From positions 1 through 34,146 of the forward strand of contig JBHHVK010000002.1 of NCBI GenBank assembly GCA_046754205.1: a stretch of 34,146 bases of DNA, given 5' to 3'. Source of the stretch: Thermodesulfobacteriota bacterium (GTDB lineage: Bacteria > Desulfobacterota > GWC2-55-46 > JBHHVK01). Positions 5,216 through 33,020 of this stretch are shown piece by piece. Every line of letters begins with the position of its first letter. The first letter of the stretch is position 1. Below the pieces are notes generated by a model. It ran no database searches. It saw only the letters and a list, made by a program, of their open reading frames with translations, and was not told where the DNA came from. A program made the translations under genes and the position numbers.

Positions 5216-5290
5216 AGGCGCGTAGCTCAGTGGGAGAGCGCTACCTTGACACGGTAGAGGTCGGCGGTTCGAAACCGCCCGTGCCTACCA
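5216..5290 (+). tRNA. tRNA-Val (anticodon GAC)
   Basis: Hand-folded cloverleaf. Acceptor AGGCGCG/CGTGCCT with one G-U pair. D arm GCTC-AGTGGGA-GAGC. Anticodon arm CTACC-TTGACAC-GGTAG. T arm GGCGG-TTCGAAA-CCGCC. Discriminator A and encoded CCA. Confidence 0.93.
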
Positions 5291-13301: not shown

Positions 13302-13378
<77 letters not shown>

Positions 13379-21321: not shown

Positions 21322-21500
21322 CTTCTTATCGAGAGTGGCAGAGGGACTGGCCCGATGAAGCCACAGCAACCGGTCCGCCTCAGGGCGTGATGTCAGGTGC
21401 TAATTCCAGCAAGGCCGTGGGAGACGTCATGTACCGTGCCGGGCGTCGCAACCCGTACCCCCAGGGGGGCTCGGGTTTCCCAGGACTTGGAAGATAAGGA
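21322..21500 (+). promoter_or_regulatory. SAM-I (S-box) riboswitch aptamer
   Basis: CTTATC-GAGAG-TGGCAGAGGGACTGGCCCGATGAAGCCAC-AGCAACC...GGTGCTAATTCCAGCAAGG...GGAAGATAAGG. It matches the S-box consensus in P1, the P2 kink-turn, the GCAACC / GGTGCTAA junctions and the closing GATAAG. The P4 arm is unusually long. Confidence 0.9.
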
Positions 21501-21683: not shown

Positions 21684-22931
21684 ATGAATTGCATGAAGGG
21701 GTTGAGGTGCAGGGAGTGCGGCAAGGAGTACCCGCACGAGGCCCTGCACGTCTGCGAGCTCTGTTTCGGCCCTCTCGAAGTCCACTACGACTACGATAGG
21801 ATAAAGGAGGTCCTCACCAGGGAGACCATCGAGTCGAGGCAGCCGAACATGTGGCGGTACAGGGAGCTGCTCCCCCTCGATGGAGACCCCTCCGTCGGGG
21901 GCCAGGTGGGGTTCACCCCTCTTATAAGGGCGAGAAACCTCGAAAAGGTCCTCGGGGTGCGCGAGCTCTACCTGAAGAACGACGCCGTCAACTACCCCAC
22001 GCTCTCCTTCAAGGACCGCGTCGTCTCCGTGGCCATATCCCGCGCCCGCGAGATGGGCTTTGACACCGTGGCCTGCGCGTCCACGGGAAACCTGGCCAAC
22101 TCCGTGGCGGCCAACGCCGCCGCCTGCGGGATGAAGAGCTACGTCTTCATCCCCTACGACCTCGAGCAGACCAAGATAACGGGCACGCTCGTCTACGGGG
22201 CCAAGGTCGTGGGCATCAAGGGCGCCTACGACGAGGTCAACCGCCTCTGCTCGGAGATAGCCGGAAAGTACGGCTGGGCCTTCGTCAACATAAACATACG
22301 CCCCTACTACGCCGAGGGCTCGAAGACCTTCGGCCACGAGATAGCCGAGCAGCTCGGCTGGAGGCTCCCGAAGCACGTGGTGGTGCCCATGGCCGGGGGC
22401 TCCCTCATAACCAAGATATGGAAGGCCTTCGAGGAGTTCAAGAAGCTCGGCCTGGTGGAGGACACCGGGACCAGCGTCTACGGGGCGCAGGCCGCCGGGT
22501 GCGCGCCCATCGTCACCGCCGTCAAGGAGGGCAGTGAGCTCATCCGCCCGGTCAAGGCCAGGACCATAGCCAAGTCGCTGGCCATAGGCAACCCCGCCGA
22601 CGGATACTACTCCGCAAAGACCATCCGCGAGAGCGGAGGCTGGGGCGAGGACGTCACCGACGCCGAGATAGTGGACGCCATGAAGATGCTCGCCGAGACC
22701 GAGGGCGTCTTCGCCGAGACCGCCGGGGGCGTGACCTTCGGAGTGGCCAAAAAACTCATCGAGCAGGGCCGCATCCCCACCGACGAGTCCATAGTGATAT
22801 CCATAACCGGAAACGGCCTCAAGACGCAGGAGGCCCTGAACGGCTCGATCGAGCCCCCGGTGGTCATAGACGCCAGGCTCGGGGAGTTCGACGCCCTGGT
22901 CAGGGCAGAGGAAAAAGAGCTCGCCCTTTGA
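21684..22931 (+). CDS. Threonine-synthase-family PLP enzyme with an N-terminal Zn-ribbon (candidate O-phosphohomoserine-dependent homocysteine synthase)
   Basis: CRECGKEY...CELCFGPL zinc ribbon. PLP-lysine motif PTLSFKDRVVS. ASTGNLANS and MAGGSL. GAGGAGGAGAG RBS. Sits behind a SAM riboswitch. Confidence 0.8.
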   Translation: MNCMKGLRCRECGKEYPHEALHVCELCFGPLEVHYDYDRIKEVLTRETIESRQPNMWRYRELLPLDGDPSVGGQVGFTPLIRARNLEKVLGVRELYLKNDAVNYPTLSFKDRVVSVAISRAREMGFDTVACASTGNLANSVAANAAACGMKSYVFIPYDLEQTKITGTLVYGAKVVGIKGAYDEVNRLCSEIAGKYGWAFVNINIRPYYAEGSKTFGHEIAEQLGWRLPKHVVVPMAGGSLITKIWKAFEEFKKLGLVEDTGTSVYGAQAAGCAPIVTAVKEGSELIRPVKARTIAKSLAIGNPADGYYSAKTIRESGGWGEDVTDAEIVDAMKMLAETEGVFAETAGGVTFGVAKKLIEQGRIPTDESIVISITGNGLKTQEALNGSIEPPVVIDARLGEFDALVRAEEKELAL

Positions 22932-23132: not shown

Positions 23133-24119
23133 ATGACGGACCACTTCATAGAGGACAAGAGGCACAAGGTCGACGTCGCCCTCGAAGGCGTAGGCCACGG
23201 CAAGGTGGACTTTGGCGACCTCAAGTCCGGCGGCTTCATAAAGCAGCGCCAGAAGGACCTCTTCACCGTGCGCCTCAGGTGCCCCGGCGGGAGGATGGAG
23301 ACTAAAAAGCTCGTTGAGATATCCAAGATAGCCGACAAGTACAGCAAAAAGGGGGTGGTGCACTTCAGCTACCGCCAGTCCCTCGAGATACTCTACGTCG
23401 ACTACAACGAGTTCAACAACATAGTCGCGGAGCTTGAAAAGATCGGCCAGAAGGTCGCCTCCTGCGGACCCAGGGTCCGCGTGCCCACGGCCTGCGGGGG
23501 CTGCGAGTACAACCCCAACGGGCTCATCGACACCCAGGCGCTCGCCGCGATGGTCGACGAGAAGTTCTTCGGCACGCCCACGCCCCACAAGTTCAAGACC
23601 TGCTTTTCAGGCTGCCCCATAGACTGCTCCCGGAGCAAGGAGATGGACCTCGGCTTCCAGGGCGTCGTCGAGCCCGAGTGGGACAAGCCGCTCTGCACGG
23701 GCTGCACCATCTGCGCGGAGGCCTGCAAGGAGGACGCCATAGAGAGCGACTCGGAGACGGGCATGCCCTACTTCGACCCGAAAAAATGCATCTACTGCGG
23801 CGACTGCATCCGCGCCTGCCCGACCGAGGCCTGGAAGGTCAAGAGGTATGGCCACACCGTAAGGATAGGCGGCAAGCACGGACGGCACCCCATGGAGTCG
23901 GTCGAGGTGGCCAACTTCATACCCGACGACAGGGTCGCCGCGGTAATAGAAAAGACCGTCGAGTGGTACAACGCCAACGGAGACCGCTTCGAGAGGATAG
24001 GCAACACCTTAAAGCGCGTCGGGCTCGACAAGTACATCGAGTTCATGGGTCCGCTGCTCGTCACCGAGCCCGCGGCGGAGTCGGGGGGCTATAAGAAACC
24101 GACCGAGAAGGCGGGTTGA
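23133..24119 (+). CDS. Small Dsr-like / assimilatory-type sulfite reductase (sirohaem-[4Fe-4S] domain with an inserted 2x[4Fe-4S] ferredoxin domain)
   Basis: Sirohaem-cluster Cys pattern TACGGCEY...CFSGCPIDC. Ferredoxin motifs CTGCTICAEAC and CIYCGDCIRACP. 328 aa. Confidence 0.7.
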   Translation: MTDHFIEDKRHKVDVALEGVGHGKVDFGDLKSGGFIKQRQKDLFTVRLRCPGGRMETKKLVEISKIADKYSKKGVVHFSYRQSLEILYVDYNEFNNIVAELEKIGQKVASCGPRVRVPTACGGCEYNPNGLIDTQALAAMVDEKFFGTPTPHKFKTCFSGCPIDCSRSKEMDLGFQGVVEPEWDKPLCTGCTICAEACKEDAIESDSETGMPYFDPKKCIYCGDCIRACPTEAWKVKRYGHTVRIGGKHGRHPMESVEVANFIPDDRVAAVIEKTVEWYNANGDRFERIGNTLKRVGLDKYIEFMGPLLVTEPAAESGGYKKPTEKAG

Positions 24120-24152: not shown

Positions 24153-24392
24153 ATGAGTGAAATCAAACCCGATGTCTCCCTCGACCTGCGGGGAGTGATG
24201 TGCCCCACGAACTTCGTCAAGGCAAAGCTGAAGTTAGAGATGATGGAAGAGGGCCAGGTCTTAGAGCTCGTCCTCGACAGCGGCGAGCCTATCGCGAACG
24301 TGCCCAAGTCCATAAAGGAGGAGGGGCACAGGGTCGTGGAGGTGAAGAGGGAGGACGACCACTTCCGCCTCAAGGTCCGCAAGGAGGCTTAG
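24153..24392 (+). CDS. TusA/SirA-family sulfur-carrier-like protein
   Basis: 79 aa. LDLRGVMCPTNFVKAKLKL holds the conserved active-site Cys-Pro of the TusA fold. Confidence 0.75.
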   Translation: MSEIKPDVSLDLRGVMCPTNFVKAKLKLEMMEEGQVLELVLDSGEPIANVPKSIKEEGHRVVEVKREDDHFRLKVRKEA

Positions 24393-24548
24393 GGGGGTAG
24401 GGGGTTTAGGGAGTGTAGGGGGCTTAGGGTGACGCTCTCCCCCCCCCGGCGGACGTGTCCGGCCTGTAAATGGGGCTCAGGGGGGCAGGGGGGCGAGGGG
24501 GGCGAGGCATGGGACAGCCATAGGTGGCGGGGGGGGCGAGGCAGGGGC
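24392..24548 (+). repeat. Two G-quadruplex-type tracts starting at the tusA-like stop codon
   Basis: TAGGGGGGTAGGGGGTTTAGGGAGTGTAGGGGGCTTAGGGTG (five TAGGG-type runs), then a C8 run, then GGGGCTCAGGGGGGCAGGGGGGCGAGGGGGGCGAGG...GGCGGGGGGGGCGAGGCAGGGG. Confidence 0.75.
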
Positions 24549-24567
24549 CGTAAGGCTCCCCTTTTTT
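24544..24567 (+). terminator. Weak intrinsic terminator or attenuator between the tusA-like and thiS-like genes
   Basis: GGGGCC-GTAA-GGCTCCCC, a 6-bp stem with one bulge, followed by TTTTTT. Confidence 0.35.
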
Positions 24568-24628
24568 ACCCCCTTTGCACAGACCGGGTTCAGGATTAAA
24601 AAAAGCGGATATATTCAGGAGGTGCGCG

Positions 24629-24910
24629 ATGTCAGTCAAGGTGAGGATACCCACACCGCTCAGGAAGATTACCAATAACTCCGATGAGGTAGCCGCCGAG
24701 GGGACGAACGTCGGGCAGGTTATAGAGGACCTCGAGAAGAACTACCCGGGCATCAAGGAGAGGATCTGCGAGGAGGACGGCAGGCTCAGGCGCTTCGTGA
24801 ACCTCTACCTCAACGACGAGGACATCAGGTTCATGAACAACCTCGATACCGAGCTCAAGGACGGCGACGAGCTTTCCATCATCCCAGCCATAGCCGGAGG
24901 GTCCCGGTGA
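24629..24910 (+). CDS. ThiS/MoaD-family ubiquitin-like sulfur carrier ending GG-Ser-Arg
   Basis: 93 aa from the ATG at 24629 behind an AGGAGG RBS. DGDELSIIPAIAGGSR* is the beta-grasp C-terminus, with a Gly-Gly followed by two extra residues. Confidence 0.8.
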   Translation: MSVKVRIPTPLRKITNNSDEVAAEGTNVGQVIEDLEKNYPGIKERICEEDGRLRRFVNLYLNDEDIRFMNNLDTELKDGDELSIIPAIAGGSR

Positions 24911-25143
24911 AGAAGAGGGTCTACCTTACATACCCGAAGGAGCAGGTGAAGGAACCGCTCCTCTACCAGTGCGGCAAGCTCTGCGGCGTGGCCTTCAACA
25001 TCAGGCAGGCGAGCGTGTCGGACGCGGTGGGGCTCGTGGCGCTCGAGCTCGAAGGGGAGCCCGAGGAGATAGACAGGGCCATCGACTTCTTTATCAGCAA
25101 GGGCGTCAAGGTCGAGCCCATAGAGCTCGATATCATCGAGTGA
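24907..25143 (+). CDS. Stand-alone NIL-domain protein (ferredoxin-like fold, as at the MetN C-terminus)
   Basis: GTGA start/stop overlap with the carrier gene. 78 aa. YLTYPKEQVKEPLLYQ...FNIRQASVS...GLVALELEG...FFISKGVKVEPI matches the NIL-domain pattern. Confidence 0.65.
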   Translation: MKKRVYLTYPKEQVKEPLLYQCGKLCGVAFNIRQASVSDAVGLVALELEGEPEEIDRAIDFFISKGVKVEPIELDIIE

Positions 25144-25216
25144 CCCCTGCGGCCGCCGCCCGCCCATCCCCTTGTCCCCGCTGCCGGGGGTTGAGACGGC
25201 GATTGCGCATACAAGG

Positions 25217-25244
25217 ACCCCCGTCGCCCGGCGGGGGTTTTTTT
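25217..25244 (+). terminator. Intrinsic terminator ending the riboswitch-led unit
   Basis: ACCCCCG-TCGCCCGG-CGGGGGT followed by a T7 run. Confidence 0.75.
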
Positions 25245-25355
25245 GTCCTGCCCGCCGCGCCCGGCCCGCCGCGCAGGGGGGGGCTGACCCCTCGAATACC
25301 TTAAAAAATGTAAGGTTTTTAAGGGTTTGAATTTGCCGTTCGGTGGTAAAATATC

Positions 25356-25382
25356 TTGACAAAAGAACTAAGGTATTATAGT
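25356..25382 (+). promoter_or_regulatory. Candidate promoter of the cysM-JAMM-moeB unit
   Basis: TTGACA (25356-25361) with TATAGT (25377-25382) at a short 15-bp spacing. An AT-rich region with inverted repeat CCTTAAAAA-N8-TTTTTAAGG (25299-25324) lies upstream. Confidence 0.4.
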
Positions 25383-25551
25383 TTAAAAGTTGAGAAGTCT
25401 ACTAAGGTATTCTGCGGCGGCCTCGCCCGTTTCCGCCCGCCCTTTTCCGGATGGGCGCGCTTCAGGAAGAGGGCCCTATCCGGCCGCCGTGCAGGAGTCT
25501 GGTCGGCGTGTCCCTTCGGCAGGTCACGTAACCTTCGAGAGGTAATGGTTT

Positions 25552-26532
25552 ATGGGAGGACAGGGACGTAATCTCGCGGCCCCCGACCGCGAAGGCGCGG
25601 TTCTTCACACCTCCGGCGGGGCGAGGGTCGGCGCCTCGGTGCTCGAGCTCGTGGGCAACACACCCCTTGTGAGGATAAACAACATCACCAGGGGGCTGGC
25701 TCCCGGGGTGGATATCTACGCCAAGCTCGAGAGCTGCAACCCCGGGGGCTCGGTCAAGGACCGCGCGGCGCTCAGCATGATAGAGGACGCCGAAAATAGC
25801 GGCAGGTTCACGAAGGACAAGGTCCTTCTCGACTCCACCTCGGGCAACACCGGGATAGCCTACGCCTGGATATGCGCCGTCAAGGGGTACAAGGTAAGGC
25901 TCTGCGTGCCCGAGAACGTGAGCGAGGAGCGCAAGAAGACGCTCCGCGCCTTCGGCGCCGAGGTGGTCTTCAGCAACCCCCTCGAGGGCTCGGACGGCGC
26001 CATAAGGCTCGCCTGGAAGATATACGTTGAAAACCCGGAGATATACTGCAAGCTCGACCAGTACAACAACCCCTCCAACCCGATGGCCCATTACAAACAC
26101 ACGGGCCCGGAGATAATCGAGCAGACCGGGGGCAAGGTTACGCACCTCGTGGCCTCCATAGGCACCGGCGGGACCATAATGGGCACGGGCCGGAGCCTGA
26201 AGGAGTTCAACCCGGACATACAGGTCGTGGCGGTGGAGCCGGACAGCCCGCTGCACGGGCTCGAGGGCCTCAAGCACATGGCCTCCTCGATAGTGCCCGG
26301 CATTTACCACGCCGAGCAGCACGACAGCAAGGTGCCGGCCCCCACGGAGGAGTCCTACGACATGGCCAAGAGGCTCGCCCGCGAGGAGGGGCTCCTCGTG
26401 GGCCAGTCCTCGGGAGCGGCCATGTGGGGCGCTCTCGAGGTGGCCCGGAACCTCGACAGGGGGCTGGTGGTGGTCATCTTCCCCGACGGGGGCGACAAGT
26501 ACCTCTCCACCAGGCTCTGGGACGAGGCATAA
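25552..26532 (+). CDS. Cysteine synthase-family PLP enzyme (CysM/CysK-like)
   Basis: LVGNTPLVRIN, KLESCNPGGSVKDRAAL (PLP Lys), STSGNTGIAYA and GTGGTIMG. The N-terminal 25 or so residues are non-conserved, so the true start may be further downstream. Confidence 0.88.
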   Translation: MGGQGRNLAAPDREGAVLHTSGGARVGASVLELVGNTPLVRINNITRGLAPGVDIYAKLESCNPGGSVKDRAALSMIEDAENSGRFTKDKVLLDSTSGNTGIAYAWICAVKGYKVRLCVPENVSEERKKTLRAFGAEVVFSNPLEGSDGAIRLAWKIYVENPEIYCKLDQYNNPSNPMAHYKHTGPEIIEQTGGKVTHLVASIGTGGTIMGTGRSLKEFNPDIQVVAVEPDSPLHGLEGLKHMASSIVPGIYHAEQHDSKVPAPTEESYDMAKRLAREEGLLVGQSSGAAMWGALEVARNLDRGLVVVIFPDGGDKYLSTRLWDEA

Positions 26533-27248: not shown

Positions 27249-28061
27249 ATGGACTTTACGGAAGAACAGATAGAGCGATACTCCAGGCACATCATACTCC
27301 CCGAGGTGGGCGGCCGTGGACAGGCCAAGCTCCTCAAGAGCCGGGTCTTCGTCCTCGGGGCCGGGGGGCTCGGCAGCCCGAGCCTCTTTTATCTCGCCGC
27401 CGCCGGCGTGGGCTCCATAGGCCTGGCCGACGGCGATTCCGTGGACGTCAGCAACCTCCAGCGCCAGATAATCCACACAAACTCGGATGTGGGCGCCCCC
27501 AAGGTCCACTCCGCCAGGGAATCCATCGAGGCCCTCAACCCTGACGTCAAGGTCGAGGCCTTCCACGGGCGGCTCACCGAGGAGAACATCCGCGAGGTGA
27601 TACGCCCATACGACGTAGTCCTCGACGGGTCGGACAACTTCCCCACCAGGTTCCTCGTCAACGACGCCTGCTTCTTCGAGCAAAAGACCCTCGTCTCGGG
27701 CTCCATGTTCAGGTTCGACGGCCAGGTCTCGGTCTTCAAGCCCCACGACGGCGGCCCCTGCTACAGGTGCCTCTATCCGGAGCCGCCCCCGAAGGGGCTC
27801 GTGCCGAGCTGCCAGGAGGCCGGGGTCCTCGGGGCGCTCGCCGGGGTAATCGGCGTCCTCCAGGCCGTGGAGGCCATTAAGGAGATACTCGGCATAGGAG
27901 AGTCGCTCGCCGGAAACCTCCTGATATTCGACGCCCTCAAGATGGGCTTCAGGAAGGTCAAGGTCAGGCGCGACCCCGAGTGCGCGCTCTGCGGGGGCAG
28001 CCCCACGATTACGGAACTCCGCGAGTACGAGCAGGAGGCCTGCGAGTGGAGCGCCGGCTGA
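27249..28061 (+). CDS. MoeB/ThiF-family E1-like adenylyltransferase (no rhodanese domain)
   Basis: RYSRHIILPEVG, the GAGGLGS nucleotide loop, SNLQRQ, and Zn-site pairs CYRC...CALC. 270 aa. Confidence 0.88.
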   Translation: MDFTEEQIERYSRHIILPEVGGRGQAKLLKSRVFVLGAGGLGSPSLFYLAAAGVGSIGLADGDSVDVSNLQRQIIHTNSDVGAPKVHSARESIEALNPDVKVEAFHGRLTEENIREVIRPYDVVLDGSDNFPTRFLVNDACFFEQKTLVSGSMFRFDGQVSVFKPHDGGPCYRCLYPEPPPKGLVPSCQEAGVLGALAGVIGVLQAVEAIKEILGIGESLAGNLLIFDALKMGFRKVKVRRDPECALCGGSPTITELREYEQEACEWSAG

Positions 28062-28101
28062 CGCCCGGAGCGTGCATCGCCCCTTCATAAAGGTTGCCGG
28101 C

Positions 28102-29313
28102 ATGAAGAACAACTACCTCGATAACCCCGGGGCCCTGAAGATAGACCTCATGCTCCAGGGCATCAGGATAGAGGACCCGGTGCTCAAGGCCTGGGCCTGC
28201 GGCGCCGACGGCATGGACATACTCTTGCCCATGGGCACGCTGGTCAACGTCCCCTGCAGCGACTACGTGGCCTCGACGTCGCCGTACGTCATAAAGAAGT
28301 CCGGCGATGGGCACGCCATAACCTTCGACGGGGCCGGCGAGGTGCCCGTGAGGTTCCTGCCCAAGCCCGAGTTCTACTACCGGAAGACCTCCACGGGGGT
28401 TCCCTTCTCGCGCATCGCCTCGGTCCACGGCAGCTACACCGTCATTACCCCGTCTCCGAGGTGCGAGTTCTTCAACCGGAAGGTCGAGTGCAAGTACTGC
28501 GCCGGCAACTTCGACGTCATCGGCGCGGACGAGACGGTCTTCTCCGTGGACGAGGTGCTCGAAACGGTCGCCGCGGTCCTGAAGGAGAAGGTCTCGGAGA
28601 TAATATACCTCTCGGTGGGGTTCAGCGAGGGGGACGACGGGGGTGTGGAGTTCCTCCGGCCCTACGTAAGGGCAATAAAGAAGCACTTCAACGTTCTGGT
28701 GGCCGTGGAGGCGCTGCCGCCGAAGGACAACCGCTGGATAGACAGGACCTACGCCATGGGGGCCGACTCGGTCCTCTACAACCTCGAGATATACGACCGC
28801 GAGCTCTTCGGGCTCATCTGCCCGGGCAGGGCCGAGCTCATAGGCTGGGAGAGGTACGCGGAGGCCCTCGGCTACGCCGCCGGCGTATTCCCCAACGGCA
28901 CCGTCGCCTCTCACCTCATCGTCGGGCTCGAGCCCCCGGGCTCCACTGTCCAGGGTATAGACTTTCTCGTCTCCATGGGGGTGGTGCCGATACTTCCGGT
29001 CATCAGGCCCACGAGGGACAGGTCGTACCACATTCACCCGCTCACTGCGGACGTCATAATCCCCGTATACAGGCACCTGTACAAGGCGCTCAAGGGGAGC
29101 GCGGTGAACTTCCGCTGGGTCCGCGACATCAGCATGGTCACCACCCCGGTGGAGGGAAGGCTCCTCGTGGACGAGGGCGGCCAGGGCGACAAGGCGACCC
29201 TCATGGAGAGTTTTTACGGGACGAGGCTCGGGCTCAAGGCCGCCTGGGGCCTTTCGACGATCAGGAGAAAGCTAAGGGTTAAGGAGGTCAAGGACCCCTC
29301 TGAGAACTCGTAA
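28102..29313 (+). CDS. Unassigned protein with a C-x8-C-x2-C motif (possible non-canonical radical SAM TIM-barrel enzyme)
   Basis: PRCEFFNRKVECKYCAGN cysteine triad, followed by IIYLSVGFSEGDDGG, which resembles a GGE-like motif. About 400 aa. The alternative GTG start at 28072 follows the moeB-like stop by 10 nt. Confidence 0.4.
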   Translation: MKNNYLDNPGALKIDLMLQGIRIEDPVLKAWACGADGMDILLPMGTLVNVPCSDYVASTSPYVIKKSGDGHAITFDGAGEVPVRFLPKPEFYYRKTSTGVPFSRIASVHGSYTVITPSPRCEFFNRKVECKYCAGNFDVIGADETVFSVDEVLETVAAVLKEKVSEIIYLSVGFSEGDDGGVEFLRPYVRAIKKHFNVLVAVEALPPKDNRWIDRTYAMGADSVLYNLEIYDRELFGLICPGRAELIGWERYAEALGYAAGVFPNGTVASHLIVGLEPPGSTVQGIDFLVSMGVVPILPVIRPTRDRSYHIHPLTADVIIPVYRHLYKALKGSAVNFRWVRDISMVTTPVEGRLLVDEGGQGDKATLMESFYGTRLGLKAAWGLSTIRRKLRVKEVKDPSENS

Positions 29314-29348: not shown

Positions 29349-30779
29349 TTGAGCGTTGAGATAGACACAAGGCCCATATGGGTTATCCTTCTGCAGAGGT
29401 CCCTGAGGCCGGTCTTTTTCCTGGCCATGGCGCTGATCTTCTGGCTCGTCCTGGCCGTGCCGACCCCGGCCGGGTTGACGCCCGAGGGACAGAAGGCCAT
29501 AGCCGTCTTCGTCCTCTGCCTGGTGCTGTGGGTATCGGGCGCCGTGCCGCTCGCGATTACGTCGCTCTTCGCCATAGTGCTGGTGCCGGTGCTGGGGATA
29601 CTCCCCCACAAGGAGACCCTCGGGCTCTTCGGCAACGAGGCGGTCTTCTTCATACTCGGCGCGTTCATACTCGCCGGGGCGGTGATGCAGACGGGGCTCA
29701 GCAACCGCATCGCGCTCACCATACTCGACAGGTCGGGGTACTCGCCGAAAAGGCTCCTCATAAGCATCTTCCTCCTGGCGGCGTTCCTCTCCTTCTTCAT
29801 GAGCGAGCACGCCGTGGCGGCCATGCTCTTCCCCATAGTGCTCGAGATATCGAAGAGCCTGGGCCTCAGGCCGGGAAGGTCGAACTACGGCAAGCTCCTC
29901 TTCTTCGCGCTGGCCTGGGGGTGCGTAATAGGCGGCGTGGCGACATTCCTCGGCGGGGCCCGGGTGCCGCTCGCCATGGGCATCCTGAGCGAGACCACGG
30001 GCGAGACCATAGGTTTCCTCGACTACTCCATCGCCGTCTTCCCCGTGGTGGTGATACTCCTCGTCGTGGGGTATCTCCTTCTGACGAGGTTCTTCCCCGT
30101 GGACATAGACGGGGTGGACAGGGCGCGGGAAGTGCTCGACGCAAGGGTCAGGGCCCTCGGCAAGGTCTCCTTCAAGGAGTACTCCGTGGGCCTGCTCCTC
30201 GTCGCCACCATCCTCTGCTGGATACTCTTCGGCGGCAGGGTCGGGCTATCCACCATCGCGCTCTCCTCGGTGGTGGTGCTCTTCGTCTTCAGGCTCGTCC
30301 GGTGGAGGGACATAGAGGAGTACGTCAACTGGGGGATAATCCTCATGTACGGCGGGGCCATCATCCTGGGCACCGCCCTCGATAGATCCGGGGCGGCCGA
30401 GTGGCTCGTCGGCTCGGTCCTCGGCTCCTGGGCCACGGGGCCGATGCTGGTCATCGGGTTCATCTCGCTCCTCACGCTCCTTCTGACCGAGGCCATGAGC
30501 AACGCCGCGGTCATAGCCGTGCTCCTGCCCGTGGCCATGGGGCTGGCGGGAAAGCTCTCCATGGACCCTACGGTCATGACCTATGCCGTCGCCGTGCCTG
30601 CGGGACTTGCCTTCATGTTCCCCATGAGCACGCCGGCTAACGCGCTTGCGATATCGTCGAGCTACGTAAGCGTCCGCGACCTCATAAAGGGTGGCTTCAT
30701 CATGTTCATCACGGCATGGGTGGCCTTCAACCTGGTGGCCGCCTTCTGGTGGCCCCTCATAGGGCAGGGATACGGGTAG
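29349..30779 (+). CDS. SLC13/DASS-family anion permease (candidate sulfate or sulfur-oxyanion importer)
   Basis: 476 aa, polytopic membrane protein with duplicated hairpin motifs (FMSEHA...; EAMSNAAVIAVLLPV...; MSTPANA). TTG start. Confidence 0.7.
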   Translation: MSVEIDTRPIWVILLQRSLRPVFFLAMALIFWLVLAVPTPAGLTPEGQKAIAVFVLCLVLWVSGAVPLAITSLFAIVLVPVLGILPHKETLGLFGNEAVFFILGAFILAGAVMQTGLSNRIALTILDRSGYSPKRLLISIFLLAAFLSFFMSEHAVAAMLFPIVLEISKSLGLRPGRSNYGKLLFFALAWGCVIGGVATFLGGARVPLAMGILSETTGETIGFLDYSIAVFPVVVILLVVGYLLLTRFFPVDIDGVDRAREVLDARVRALGKVSFKEYSVGLLLVATILCWILFGGRVGLSTIALSSVVVLFVFRLVRWRDIEEYVNWGIILMYGGAIILGTALDRSGAAEWLVGSVLGSWATGPMLVIGFISLLTLLLTEAMSNAAVIAVLLPVAMGLAGKLSMDPTVMTYAVAVPAGLAFMFPMSTPANALAISSSYVSVRDLIKGGFIMFITAWVAFNLVAAFWWPLIGQGYG

Positions 30780-32162: not shown

Positions 32163-33020
32163 GTGGCCGAAGGAACCGTCAAGGGGGGCGAGGGGGGGGG
32201 CGAGGGGGGGGGCGGGGGGTTGTCAGACGGCCTCGTCGGCGAGCTTTCCGCGCTCGCCGACGCCGCCGGAAGGGCGATACTCGAGATATACTCAGGGGCC
32301 GACTTCGGCACCACCTACAAGGACGACCGGAGCCCGCTGACCATGGCCGACGAGGCCTCAAACAGGGTCATCATCGCCGGGCTCGCCGACATCGCCCCGG
32401 GGATACCCGTCCTCTCCGAGGAGTCCGGGCAGGTCCCCTACGGCCGGAGAAGGGACTGGGAGAGGTTCTTCCTCGTCGACCCGCTCGACGGCACGAAGGA
32501 GTTCATCAAGCGTAACGGCGAGTTCACCGTCAATATCGCCCTCGTGGAAGGGGGCCGGCCCGTCGTCGGGGTGGTCCACTGCCCGGCTCTCGGGGTGACC
32601 TACTCGGGGGTTGCGGGCTCGGGCGCGAAGAAGGCCTCGAAAGGGGGTAGTATCGCGATAAGGGCCGGGGGCCCCGCTGGCGGCGCGCTCAAGGTCGTGG
32701 CCTCGAGGTCCCACAGGGGCGAGGCCACGGACAGGTTCGTCGAAAGGCTCCGCGCCGAGGGCCGCCAGGTCGAGTTCGTGGGCATGGGGAGCTCCTTGAA
32801 GCTCTGCCTCGTAGCCGAGGGGGCCGCCCACCTCTACCCGAGGTTCGGCCCCACCATGGAGTGGGATACCGCGGCGGCCCAGTGCGTGGTCGAGGCCGCG
32901 GGCGGCGCCGTCACCGACCTTGACGGGGCCCCGCTGGTGTACAACAAGGAGGACCTCTTAAACCCGTACTTCATGGTCGTGGGCGACCCGGCCTTCACAT
33001 GGCAACGGTACATCTACTGA
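32163..33020 (+). CDS. cysQ: 3'(2'),5'-bisphosphate nucleotidase
   Basis: SEESG, VDPLDGTKEF and WDTAAAQCVVEAAGG inositol-monophosphatase-family motifs. GTG 32163 has a GGGAGAGAGAG RBS but gives a Gly/Glu-rich N-terminus encoded by a G-run tract. TTG 32220 is an alternative start. Confidence 0.85.
   Translation: MAEGTVKGGEGGGEGGGGGLSDGLVGELSALADAAGRAILEIYSGADFGTTYKDDRSPLTMADEASNRVIIAGLADIAPGIPVLSEESGQVPYGRRRDWERFFLVDPLDGTKEFIKRNGEFTVNIALVEGGRPVVGVVHCPALGVTYSGVAGSGAKKASKGGSIAIRAGGPAGGALKVVASRSHRGEATDRFVERLRAEGRQVEFVGMGSSLKLCLVAEGAAHLYPRFGPTMEWDTAAAQCVVEAAGGAVTDLDGAPLVYNKEDLLNPYFMVVGDPAFTWQRYIY

Follow-up and report, generated by a model that had tools for sequence, protein, structure and literature searches.

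Why does a ThiS-family sulfur carrier end two residues beyond its Gly-Gly motif, and why does its stop codon lie on the start codon of a small stand-alone NIL-domain protein? The question is raised by a 34,146-nucleotide (nt) stretch of contig JBHHVK010000002.1 (assembly GCA_046754205.1, a Thermodesulfobacteriota bacterium), referred to below as the window. The answer developed here is that carrier and NIL domain, fused in a large protein family, are very probably present in the window as separate genes linked by translational coupling. The elements on which the argument turns are the following:

24629-24910, + strand: ThiS-family sulfur carrier, CysO/MetO-like, 93 aa, ending ...IPAIAGGSR before the stop codon
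24896-24900, + strand: GGAGG, probable Shine-Dalgarno sequence of the NIL gene, spelled by the Gly-Gly codons, 6 nt before the NIL start
24907-24910, + strand: GTGA start/stop overlap (carrier TGA 24908-24910 on NIL GTG 24907-24909)
24907-25143, + strand: stand-alone NIL-domain protein, 78 aa, Pfam NIL PF09383
26708-27151, + strand: JAMM/Mec-type metallopeptidase (Prok-JAB, E=2.3e-27; motif HSHPDHPDRPSEFD visible in the translation)

The carrier is a beta-grasp ThiS-family domain, matching Pfam ThiS (PF02597, E=1.2e-19) and, above their cut-offs, the NCBIfam models SAMP1 and MoaD_arch. Both the best structural and the best profile match of its family is CysO of Mycobacterium tuberculosis, which Foldseek aligns with a template modelling (TM) score of 0.93 and 48% identity, and which a profile built from fused relatives of the carrier recovers at E=1.6e-29. 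The window carrier has the AIAGG motif, which does not vary among relatives; since Ser-Arg stands after Gly-Gly in the window, a free Gly-Gly terminus would need proteolysis. The NIL protein matches PF09383 at E=1.9e-15 (56.9 bits against a cut-off of 24), is read in the -1 frame relative to the carrier, and has no possible start codon earlier than the GTG at 24907-24909. A previous sequence-only reading of this DNA had described a carrier open reading frame (ORF) ending in IPAIAGGSR, a GTGA overlap with a 78-aa NIL ORF and a JAMM gene about 1.6 kb downstream. The sequence and the Pfam matches bear out the first two, and the JAMM gene begins 1565 nt after the NIL stop, with the metal-binding motif E..HSH-x7-S-xx-D intact. 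Programmed frameshifting as a source of a fused product was rejected on inspection: the window junction, GGG TCC CGG TGA, has no slippery heptamer, and a +1 slip in the more common GCG TTT TGA junction leads into the wrong frame.

To define how far the arrangement extends, one genome per species was scanned with a NIL profile, giving 80 loci; the locus counts reported for them are raw. About 60 of these loci (type 1), from metagenome-assembled genomes (MAGs) labelled Deltaproteobacteria or Thermodesulfobacteriota, have the full ten-gene order of the window. A further 16 (type 2), from MAGs labelled Myxococcales and Binatia, have the order E1-type adenylyltransferase (E1), ThrC-like enzyme, carrier, CysM, NIL, degenerate ThiF-like protein, radical-SAM protein and DASS transporter, and no JAMM gene lies in the flanks of these 16. 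Both genes of the pair could be placed in 76 of the 80 loci: an identical 4-nt NTGA overlap joins them in 44, a gap of 0-137 nt or a 1-nt overlap in 14, a gap of 415 nt in one, only cysM intervenes in 13, and four are in-frame fusions. NIL starts with TTG in 51 loci, with GTG in 6 and with ATG in 2; because this weak start is kept on the upstream stop, the pattern is that expected of termination-reinitiation coupling. For NIL, median identity to the window protein is 72%. The carrier, ThrC-like enzyme, CysM and E1 reach 78-82%, the radical-SAM protein 64% and JAMM 54%, so NIL is about as conserved as the cluster enzymes. The carrier-NIL arrangement is therefore not chance. The earlier reading had suggested looking for recurrence of the adjacency and overlap and for co-conservation of NIL with the carrier, and both are found.

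A homologue search with NIL returned 520 matches; identity is 72-96% for the 120 listed, almost all of which have a length of exactly 78 aa. Public databases label the family 'FeS-binding protein', 'Methionine import ATP-binding protein MetN' or 'L-aspartate semialdehyde sulfurtransferase ferredoxin', names that are carried over from multidomain relatives and are misleading. The degenerate ThiF-like protein (162-226 aa) stands right after NIL or a ThiS-NIL fusion (L071 8262-8750, L082 8559-9239 and other type-2 loci); only its N-terminal ~50 residues match ThiF, a full-length E1 is also present, and it may be a non-catalytic E1 paralogue.

Fused relatives of the pair also exist. In four of the 80 loci, L047, L064, L067 and L075, carrier and NIL are joined in frame by the linkers GG-AIE-KKR, GG-VPATKKETV-R, GG-ARGKV-KKK and GG-MEY-KKK, respectively. 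A database search with one fusion gave 2461 matches, the best 120 of which are all 167-189 aa long and carry PF02597 plus PF09383, and the two domains form one polypeptide in more than 120 protein clusters spanning several phyla. Their layout is AIAGG, a linker of 3-12 aa that is often Lys-rich and mostly begins with Ala, Ser or Thr, and a NIL domain starting KKKVYLT. The sources include MAGs labelled Deltaproteobacteria, Nitrospirota, Limnocylindrales (Chloroflexota) and Acidulodesulfobacterium as well as an actinomycete, and the proteins are annotated merely as 'MoaD family protein' or 'molybdopterin synthase sulfur carrier subunit'. Their genomic contexts are those of the same pathway as the window. 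L081 has the ThrC-like gene and the fusion alone; L085, L087 and L089 have ThrC-like, CysM, JAMM, fusion and E1 genes, with DsrE, TusA, DASS and ATP sulfurylase nearby; and L091 (ThrC-like, sulfite reductase, TusA, fusion, CysM, E1, radical-SAM, DASS) reproduces the window synteny with the two genes joined.

NIL is also attached to other members of the pathway. Two proteins, P0281 (L092 5692-6405) and P0288, of 237 and 249 aa, are JAMM-NIL fusions, P0241 is a tandem NIL-NIL protein, P0346 is a NIL-thioesterase fragment, and P0330 is a possible fusion of NIL to the ThrC-like enzyme, which may be an artefact. L092 also encodes a 3'-phosphoadenosine-5'-phosphosulfate reductase and a separate 91-aa ThiS. 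Two distant stand-alone NILs, on contigs shorter than 1 kb, are found one behind a carrier that ends at AIAGG, the other with the C-terminus of a ThrC-like protein and a cysteine desulfurase. The earlier proposal that NIL is a stoichiometric partner gains support from these Rosetta-stone fusions to carrier and JAMM, from the conserved overlap and from the co-conservation. An artefactual origin of the carrier fusions had been suspected for L047 (low-coverage contig, A-run at the junction) and was rejected: the L047 protein falls in a 90% cluster with six other members from separate samples, and the three other genome loci and the more than 120 clusters have unrelated linker sequences.

A neighbour-joining tree of 201 NIL domains (~78 columns, midpoint-rooted) places the type-1 and type-2 stand-alone NILs in two separate clades, each nested within fused sequences; this nesting suggests two fissions of an ancestral fusion, in the direction from fused to split. 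A single inserted base could have produced the observed junction: in a linker such as ...ATA GAA AAA... it would give ...ATA GAT TGA AAA..., creating stop codon, overlap and TTG start in one step (compare L047 and L029).

The residues that follow Gly-Gly in the split carriers fit such an origin. Tails after AIAGG range from 0 to 6 residues among relatives and are not conserved in sequence (AF, AA, AS, RS, RC, MC, KF, SI, F, L, M, R, V, GKP, GGL, TRSLS or none), with a length of 2 aa in 40 of the 59 type-1 loci. The first Gly codon of the pair is GGA in 40 of these 59 loci, compared with 14% GGA among the Gly codons of the cluster genes, an excess with a binomial p of 6e-21 that is not corrected for shared ancestry. 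GGA GGN spells GGAGG, which with a two-codon tail lies 6 nt before the NIL start. Because the Gly-Gly codons spell this motif six bases before that start, the tail can be read as a Shine-Dalgarno spacer: the Gly-Gly codons probably double as the ribosome-binding site of NIL, and Ser-Arg is probably a vestigial linker that now sets the distance from Shine-Dalgarno sequence to start codon. The earlier description of a two-residue mask of Gly-Gly thus needs revising, since GGAGG and the variable tails make the tail look like a linker remnant and spacer rather than a purpose-built cap.

The accompanying proposal that the carrier is a pro-form matured by JAMM fares better, being supported by the variable tails of 0-6 aa, the JAMM gene of the type-1 operons and the fused relatives. 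Every type-1 locus of sufficient length has a JAMM gene within the operon, and in the window extra residues after Gly-Gly occur in the same cluster as a JAMM protein with an intact metal-binding motif. In the fused relatives cleavage would be obligatory, because an entire NIL domain follows Gly-Gly. Hydrolysis of carrier-amino-acid bonds by JAMM enzymes can be deduced from the chemistry of CysO/Mec and HcyS/HcyD. A tail may be tolerated because JAMM would have to hydrolyse the carrier-GG-Cys and carrier-GG-homocysteine bonds in any case. The GapMind 2026 preprint (10.1101/2024.10.14.618325, citing Hasebe 2024) states that the terminus of MetO, a related carrier, is matured by the JAMM enzyme Mec. 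Trimming of the carrier tail by JAMM is accordingly likely.

Where no JAMM gene is close by, the enzyme may act from elsewhere in the genome, or another protease may take its place. In a JAMM-less fused cluster, a ClpP-family protease gene directly follows E1 (L082 10132-10719 / L084 2230-2817), which could be an alternative processing enzyme or a coincidence; ClpS was seen in actinobacterial CysO operons by a 2006 survey of prokaryotic ubiquitin-like systems (PMC1779556).

NIL itself might be a remnant: a leftover pro-domain or cap that once masked Gly-Gly, with tail and overlap as mere gene packing. NIL does physically mask Gly-Gly in the fused forms, and four-base overlaps are common in compact operons. 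Against this, the separated NIL is still 64-83% identical across ~60 genomes, like the catalytic enzymes and above JAMM; it was kept by two independent split lineages; JAMM-NIL fusions and a tandem form exist; and conservation extends to the overlap and to the rare TTG start. We regard a leftover cap as very unlikely.

The predicted structure of NIL resembles a methionine-binding domain. The AlphaFold2 (AF2) model of NIL (mean predicted local distance difference test score, pLDDT, 89; predicted TM score, pTM, 0.77) adopts a beta-alpha-beta-beta-alpha-beta fold. The 11 best Foldseek matches are all C2/NIL domains of the methionine importer ATPase MetN, followed by ACT and PII-type regulatory domains, and the alignment with 3tui_C has a TM of 0.83 and a root-mean-square deviation of 1.3 A. 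By sequence, a search of the Protein Data Bank (PDB) with the single NIL protein gave no match, and a profile was needed. In the profile alignment the invariant N31 and A35 of NIL align with N295 and A299 of E. coli MetN; in the fusions the equivalent Asn (N124) is invariant and the equivalent Ala (A128) nearly so. In MetN, bound methionine hydrogen-bonds to N295 of the opposite C2 domain, and with the N295A substitution binding of L-methionine is no longer detectable; A299-A299 strand pairing is the hallmark of the dimer locked by methionine (PMC6233128). These correspondences favour methionine sensing as the predicted function. The protein is nonetheless no MetN ATPase: it comprises 78 aa of NIL alone, lacks an ABC ATPase domain and matches TIGR02314 only at model positions 271-338, with 16.6 bits against a cut-off of 499.7. 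'MetN' and 'FeS-binding protein' are thus misannotations of this family.

The attachment of NIL to varied members of one pathway, as is usual for ACT-like feedback modules, leads us to prefer a regulatory reading, in which NIL would be an equimolar methionine- or homocysteine-sensing subunit; we put this forward tentatively, as plausible but short of probable. The same fusions, to the carrier, to JAMM and possibly to the ThrC-like enzyme, would also suit a non-sensing adaptor or escort that binds no ligand and docks the carrier, or its C-terminus, on JAMM, the ThrC-like enzyme, CysM or E1, much as MoaE accompanies MoaD. NIL always stands beside the ThrC-like gene and the carrier, including in two-gene loci and for the distant NILs, and ThiS and MoaD are known as fusions with their partners ThiG and MoaE (PMC1779556). 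However, fusion to varied pathway components is equally typical of ACT-like modules, and the residues conserved in NIL correspond to the methionine-dependent dimer interface in MetN. A further point against the adaptor comes from the AF2 model of one fusion, which has two confident domains (mean pLDDT 90) joined by an IAGG junction of pLDDT below 50, with a pTM of 0.53 and no confident docking of NIL on the carrier, and on this model the junction would be an exposed hinge between domains without fixed packing. We consider the adaptor rather unlikely, although it is the strongest competitor of the sensing subunit.

The genes around the pair, which point to the pathway, are the following:

21323-21430, + strand: S-adenosylmethionine (SAM, S-box) riboswitch at the operon head (Rfam RF00162, 60.7 bits against a gathering score of 44.4)
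21684-22931, + strand: ThrC-like pyridoxal-phosphate (PLP) enzyme with N-terminal zinc ribbon, probable MetM-type homocysteine synthase (PALP, E=4e-70, plus NinF-type ribbon)
23133-24119, + strand: small sulfite reductase with inserted 2x[4Fe-4S] ferredoxin domain (NIR_SIR, NIR_SIR_ferr, Fer4)
24153-24392, + strand: TusA/SirA-type sulfurtransferase (PF01206, E=7.5e-21)
25216-25245, + strand: strong intrinsic terminator ending the carrier-NIL unit (10-bp G+C-rich hairpin, then U7; RNAfold)
25552-26532, + strand: CysM-type cysteine synthase (TIGR01138 cysM, E=1e-110; its PDB matches are cysteine synthases)
27249-28061, + strand: MoeB/ThiF-type E1 adenylyltransferase without rhodanese domain (ThiF, E=2.3e-83; 270 aa)
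28072-29313, + strand: variant radical-SAM protein, co-conserved (NF045502, E=9e-54; MSMEG_0568-like)
29349-30779, + strand: DASS-family anion (sulfate-type) symporter, co-conserved (Na_sulph_symp, E=5e-63)

The best PDB matches of the ThrC-like enzyme are threonine synthases, yet its gene lies directly behind the SAM riboswitch, where a threonine synthase has no reason to be; the riboswitch thus marks it as a methionine-pathway, MetM-like enzyme, probably a homocysteine synthase. Among 9 related loci tested, 7 also have a SAM riboswitch in front of the cluster; wherever the flank is long enough, the ThrC-like gene adjoins the carrier; and the E1 gene is retained across the relatives. Like the MetM/MetO system, the window cluster has a ThrC homologue beside the carrier under SAM-riboswitch control, and the operon probably makes homocysteine by the MetM/MetO thiocarboxylate route, with an added CysM branch to cysteine. 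A sulfur-assimilation operon type with ThiS/MoaD, JAB, rhodanese-less E1, SirA and sulfite reductase was already catalogued in 2006 (PMC1779556). Taken jointly, the split-fusion architecture and the assignment to this pathway are in our judgement very probable.

This setting bears on the other function offered by the earlier reading, sulfide delivery. NIL would then be an adaptor that supplies sulfide or persulfide to the rhodanese-less E1, by analogy with the NIL-ferredoxin subunit of methanogens. The E1 does lack a rhodanese domain, and genetic evidence shows that Desulfovibrio and methanogens need NIL-ferredoxin proteins to make homocysteine (PMC5764234). Neither the stand-alone nor the fused NIL alignment contains a conserved cysteine, though, and a Pfam scan of the window NIL protein found no Fer4 or other Fe-S domain, which argues against covalent sulfur relay and disfavours the earlier suggestion. 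The cluster already has TusA and a sulfite reductase, SirA having been given a rhodanese-like role in the 2006 survey (PMC1779556), and in MA1822 the electron and sulfur chemistry is ascribed to the ferredoxin and COG1900 parts and not to NIL (PMC12068725). No COG1900/DUF39 protein was found among the ten cluster genes or ten other large window ORFs scanned. Sulfur delivery by NIL is the least probable of the roles considered, and we deem it highly improbable.

Several further features of the locus deserve description. The tusA-carrier spacer (24393-24628, + strand) is, at 236 nt, unusually long and very rich in G-tracts (GGGGG..GGGGG..GGGGGG..GGGGGGGG), and contains a terminator-like hairpin with a T-run at 24544-24568. 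It has no Rfam match, and in related loci the gap is mostly much shorter. The spacer could be an attenuator or a leader that forms a G-quadruplex. A search for a second riboswitch or leader at 24300-25650 with Rfam at permissive E-values gave sub-threshold noise only. The radical-SAM and DASS genes come after E1 in both cluster layouts, across phyla, and we know of no described thiocarboxylate pathway in which the radical-SAM protein has an assigned role. Just downstream of the cluster is an inositol-monophosphatase-family gene (32163-33020, + strand), with a similar gene near the fused cluster L087; this family includes CysQ, the 3'-phosphoadenosine-5'-phosphate phosphatase of sulfate assimilation. 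Positions 1-21000 of the window hold housekeeping genes, namely those for a DinB-type polymerase, a DeaD helicase, ThrRS, PheRS alpha and beta, a MiaB/RimO-type methylthiotransferase, an HD-GYP/PAS/GAF protein, a small multihaem cytochrome and a Pom-family porin. Two tRNA genes lie at 5216-5287 and 13302-13375.

Among known systems, the nearest is MetM/MetO, reported in 2024, in which, according to the GapMind preprint, the ThrC homologue MetM and MetO thiocarboxylate turn O-phosphohomoserine into homocysteine (10.1101/2024.10.14.618325); metM of Streptomyces albulus is described as preceded by a SAM riboswitch (PMC12172450). Judging from these summaries, the S. albulus system shares with the window a ThrC homologue beside a ThiS-family carrier, the SAM riboswitch, maturation by Mec/JAMM and a MoeZ/MoeB-type E1. 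The summaries (10.1101/2024.10.14.618325, PMC12172450) do not mention a NIL partner, which is present here, and here the E1 has no rhodanese domain and CysM, sulfite reductase, TusA, the radical-SAM protein and the DASS transporter belong to the same operon. When an actinobacterial fusion was used as query in search of a Streptomyces MetO built as a ThiS-NIL fusion, the best 120 matches were all from metagenomes or MAGs and none was named Streptomyces. The window resembles the CysO-CysM-Mec-MoeZ system of M. tuberculosis in its clearly CysO-like carrier and in having CysM and JAMM in the same cluster, but in the alignment CysO ends exactly at Gly-Gly and has no NIL, and MoeZ has the rhodanese domain that the E1 here lacks. 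To our knowledge, the M. tuberculosis CysO cluster has neither a ThrC-like enzyme nor a riboswitch.

Carriers with short extensions are familiar from two further systems. In QbsE/QbsD of Pseudomonas (Godert 2007), carrier residues beyond Gly-Gly are reportedly removed by JAMM. For HcyS/HcyD/HcyF of Wolinella succinogenes, removal of post-GG residues by JAMM is attributed to Krishnamoorthy & Begley 2011, as cited in PMC5764234. HcyS and QbsE share with the window the short extension and an operon with JAMM, rhodanese-less E1, sulfite reductase and SirA/TusA (type 4e, PMC1779556). Those systems, in contrast, use O-acetylhomoserine sulfhydrylase (MetY) or make a siderophore, have no NIL gene, and have extensions that are not tied to an overlapping downstream start codon.

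The NIL domain has its own set of relatives. With C2 of the MetNI importer it shares the Pfam family, the fold and the Asn and Ala found where methionine locks the MetN dimer; unlike MetN C2, it is not borne on an ABC ATPase but occurs by itself, as a protein of 78 aa, or joined to a ubiquitin-like carrier or to JAMM. With the NIL-ferredoxin proteins MA1822 and DvMF_0262 (COG1900/DUF39) it shares occurrence in a homocysteine system of anaerobes with assumed methionine-dependent regulation (PMC5764234, PMC12068725). The NIL of MA1822 is treated as a methionine-binding regulatory domain (PMC12068725), its role in the methanogen homocysteine enzyme being described as still unproven (PMC5764234). 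Here there is neither a ferredoxin domain nor a COG1900 partner, and the chemistry involves a thiocarboxylate and a phosphorylated amino acid, whereas there it is the reductive sulfuration of aspartate semialdehyde.

Fusions at the carrier C-terminus have precedents as well. MoaX (MoaD-MoaE) is cleaved at Gly-Gly, and eukaryotic ubiquitin-fusion precursors are comparable. MoaD-MoaE and ThiS-ThiG fusions resemble ThiS-NIL in having a domain directly after Gly-Gly, in needing proteolysis and in that the fused domain is a functional partner (PMC1779556). They differ in that the partner here is a putative ligand-binding regulator instead of a sulfur-accepting enzyme, and in that the window appears to represent the state after fission. 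PDB 1v8c, the 'MoaD related protein' of Thermus thermophilus (168 aa), has Gly-Gly at about residue 88 and then a further domain of ~78 aa. As a precedent for NIL it was rejected, being absent from the best 50 listed matches of the NIL structure search; it is a solved carrier with a domain-sized extension after Gly-Gly, but the extra domain is not NIL-like.

Bringing these lines together, the account that fits best, and towards which we lean somewhat when it is taken as a whole, is that the pair are the split halves of a ThiS-NIL protein within a SAM-riboswitch-controlled thiocarboxylate operon for homocysteine and cysteine, with a tail trimmed by JAMM and a regulatory NIL. The carrier would be translated with a Ser-Arg tail left over from the old interdomain linker. 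With GGAGG contributed by the Gly-Gly codons and the tail as a 6-nt spacer, ribosomes finishing the carrier would restart on the GTG of NIL, keeping carrier and NIL near 1:1, as in the fused ancestor. The JAMM of the operon would trim the tail to expose Gly-Gly-COOH, and the same enzyme would have to cut carrier-GG-Cys and carrier-GG-homocysteine in each catalytic cycle. The rhodanese-less E1 would adenylate the carrier, whose conversion to the thiocarboxylate would draw on sulfide made by the sulfite reductase or on sulfur passed on through TusA; the two PLP enzymes, ThrC-like and CysM, would then consume the thiocarboxylate to form homocysteine and cysteine. NIL, as a ligand module of the MetN-C2 type, would probably dimerise around methionine or homocysteine and serve as an equimolar feedback subunit of the carrier/JAMM/PLP-enzyme machinery, carrying no sulfur itself.

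Certain observations weigh against this account. No JAMM gene is near the type-2 clusters or some fused loci (L081, L082 and L091), although tails occur on some of the carriers encoded there. NIL is four residues shorter than MetN in the beta2-beta3 hairpin, and R33/Q34, invariant here, replace I297/S298, so that its ligand could differ from that of MetN; for the whole family, ligand or partner contact is a prediction from sequence. The AF2 fusion model, with its undocked domains, offers the equimolar subunit no contact with the carrier. The tree is short, a midpoint-rooted neighbour-joining reconstruction that can only suggest the direction from fused to split, and the loci behind the overlap and GGA counts are not phylogenetically independent.

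A bolder version makes processing itself the regulated step, with ThiS-NIL as a bacterial equivalent of ubiquitin-fusion precursors. One cut by JAMM at Gly-Gly would then both activate the carrier and free a methionine/homocysteine sensor; when methionine is plentiful, the NIL dimer would block access of JAMM or E1 to the carrier C-terminus, placing end-product feedback at carrier maturation and recycling; and the split operon would maintain the 1:1 ratio of sensor to carrier through termination-reinitiation coupling. We rate this version as improbable.

Much of the chemistry invoked for the split pair is already known, namely carrier residues beyond Gly-Gly, JAMM maturation, the thiocarboxylate route to cysteine and homocysteine, and SAM-riboswitch control. 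The association of ThiS with NIL, abundant in sequence databases as a fusion, appears not to have been described before. The literature searched on NIL domains included nothing concerning ThiS/MoaD, a combined NIL and MoaD search returned nothing relevant, the 2006 survey mentions neither NIL nor MetN (PMC1779556), and NCBIfam has no model for the ThiS-NIL fusion. The sequence-only reading had called the pairing undescribed, which appears true of NCBIfam and of the literature searched, the primary MetM/MetO paper aside. We also know of no CysO, HcyS or MetO route described with a dedicated small-molecule-sensing subunit.

For annotation, the gene that pipelines would name threonine synthase probably encodes a homocysteine synthase, and the labels 'MetN', 'FeS-binding protein' and 'molybdopterin synthase sulfur carrier' are wrong or uninformative in this setting. 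The essential Gly-Gly codons probably also form the ribosome-binding site of the next gene, a double use of one sequence. A soluble 78-aa NIL with defined partners provides a simple system in which to approach the role of NIL in anaerobic homocysteine synthesis (MA1822/DUF39). The fusions are natural ubiquitin-like polyproteins that need a cut by JAMM or an equivalent enzyme, and as such bear on the prokaryotic origins of ubiquitin processing. Across many uncultured lineages of several phyla, NIL emerges as a conserved and apparently unstudied component added to thiocarboxylate pathways.

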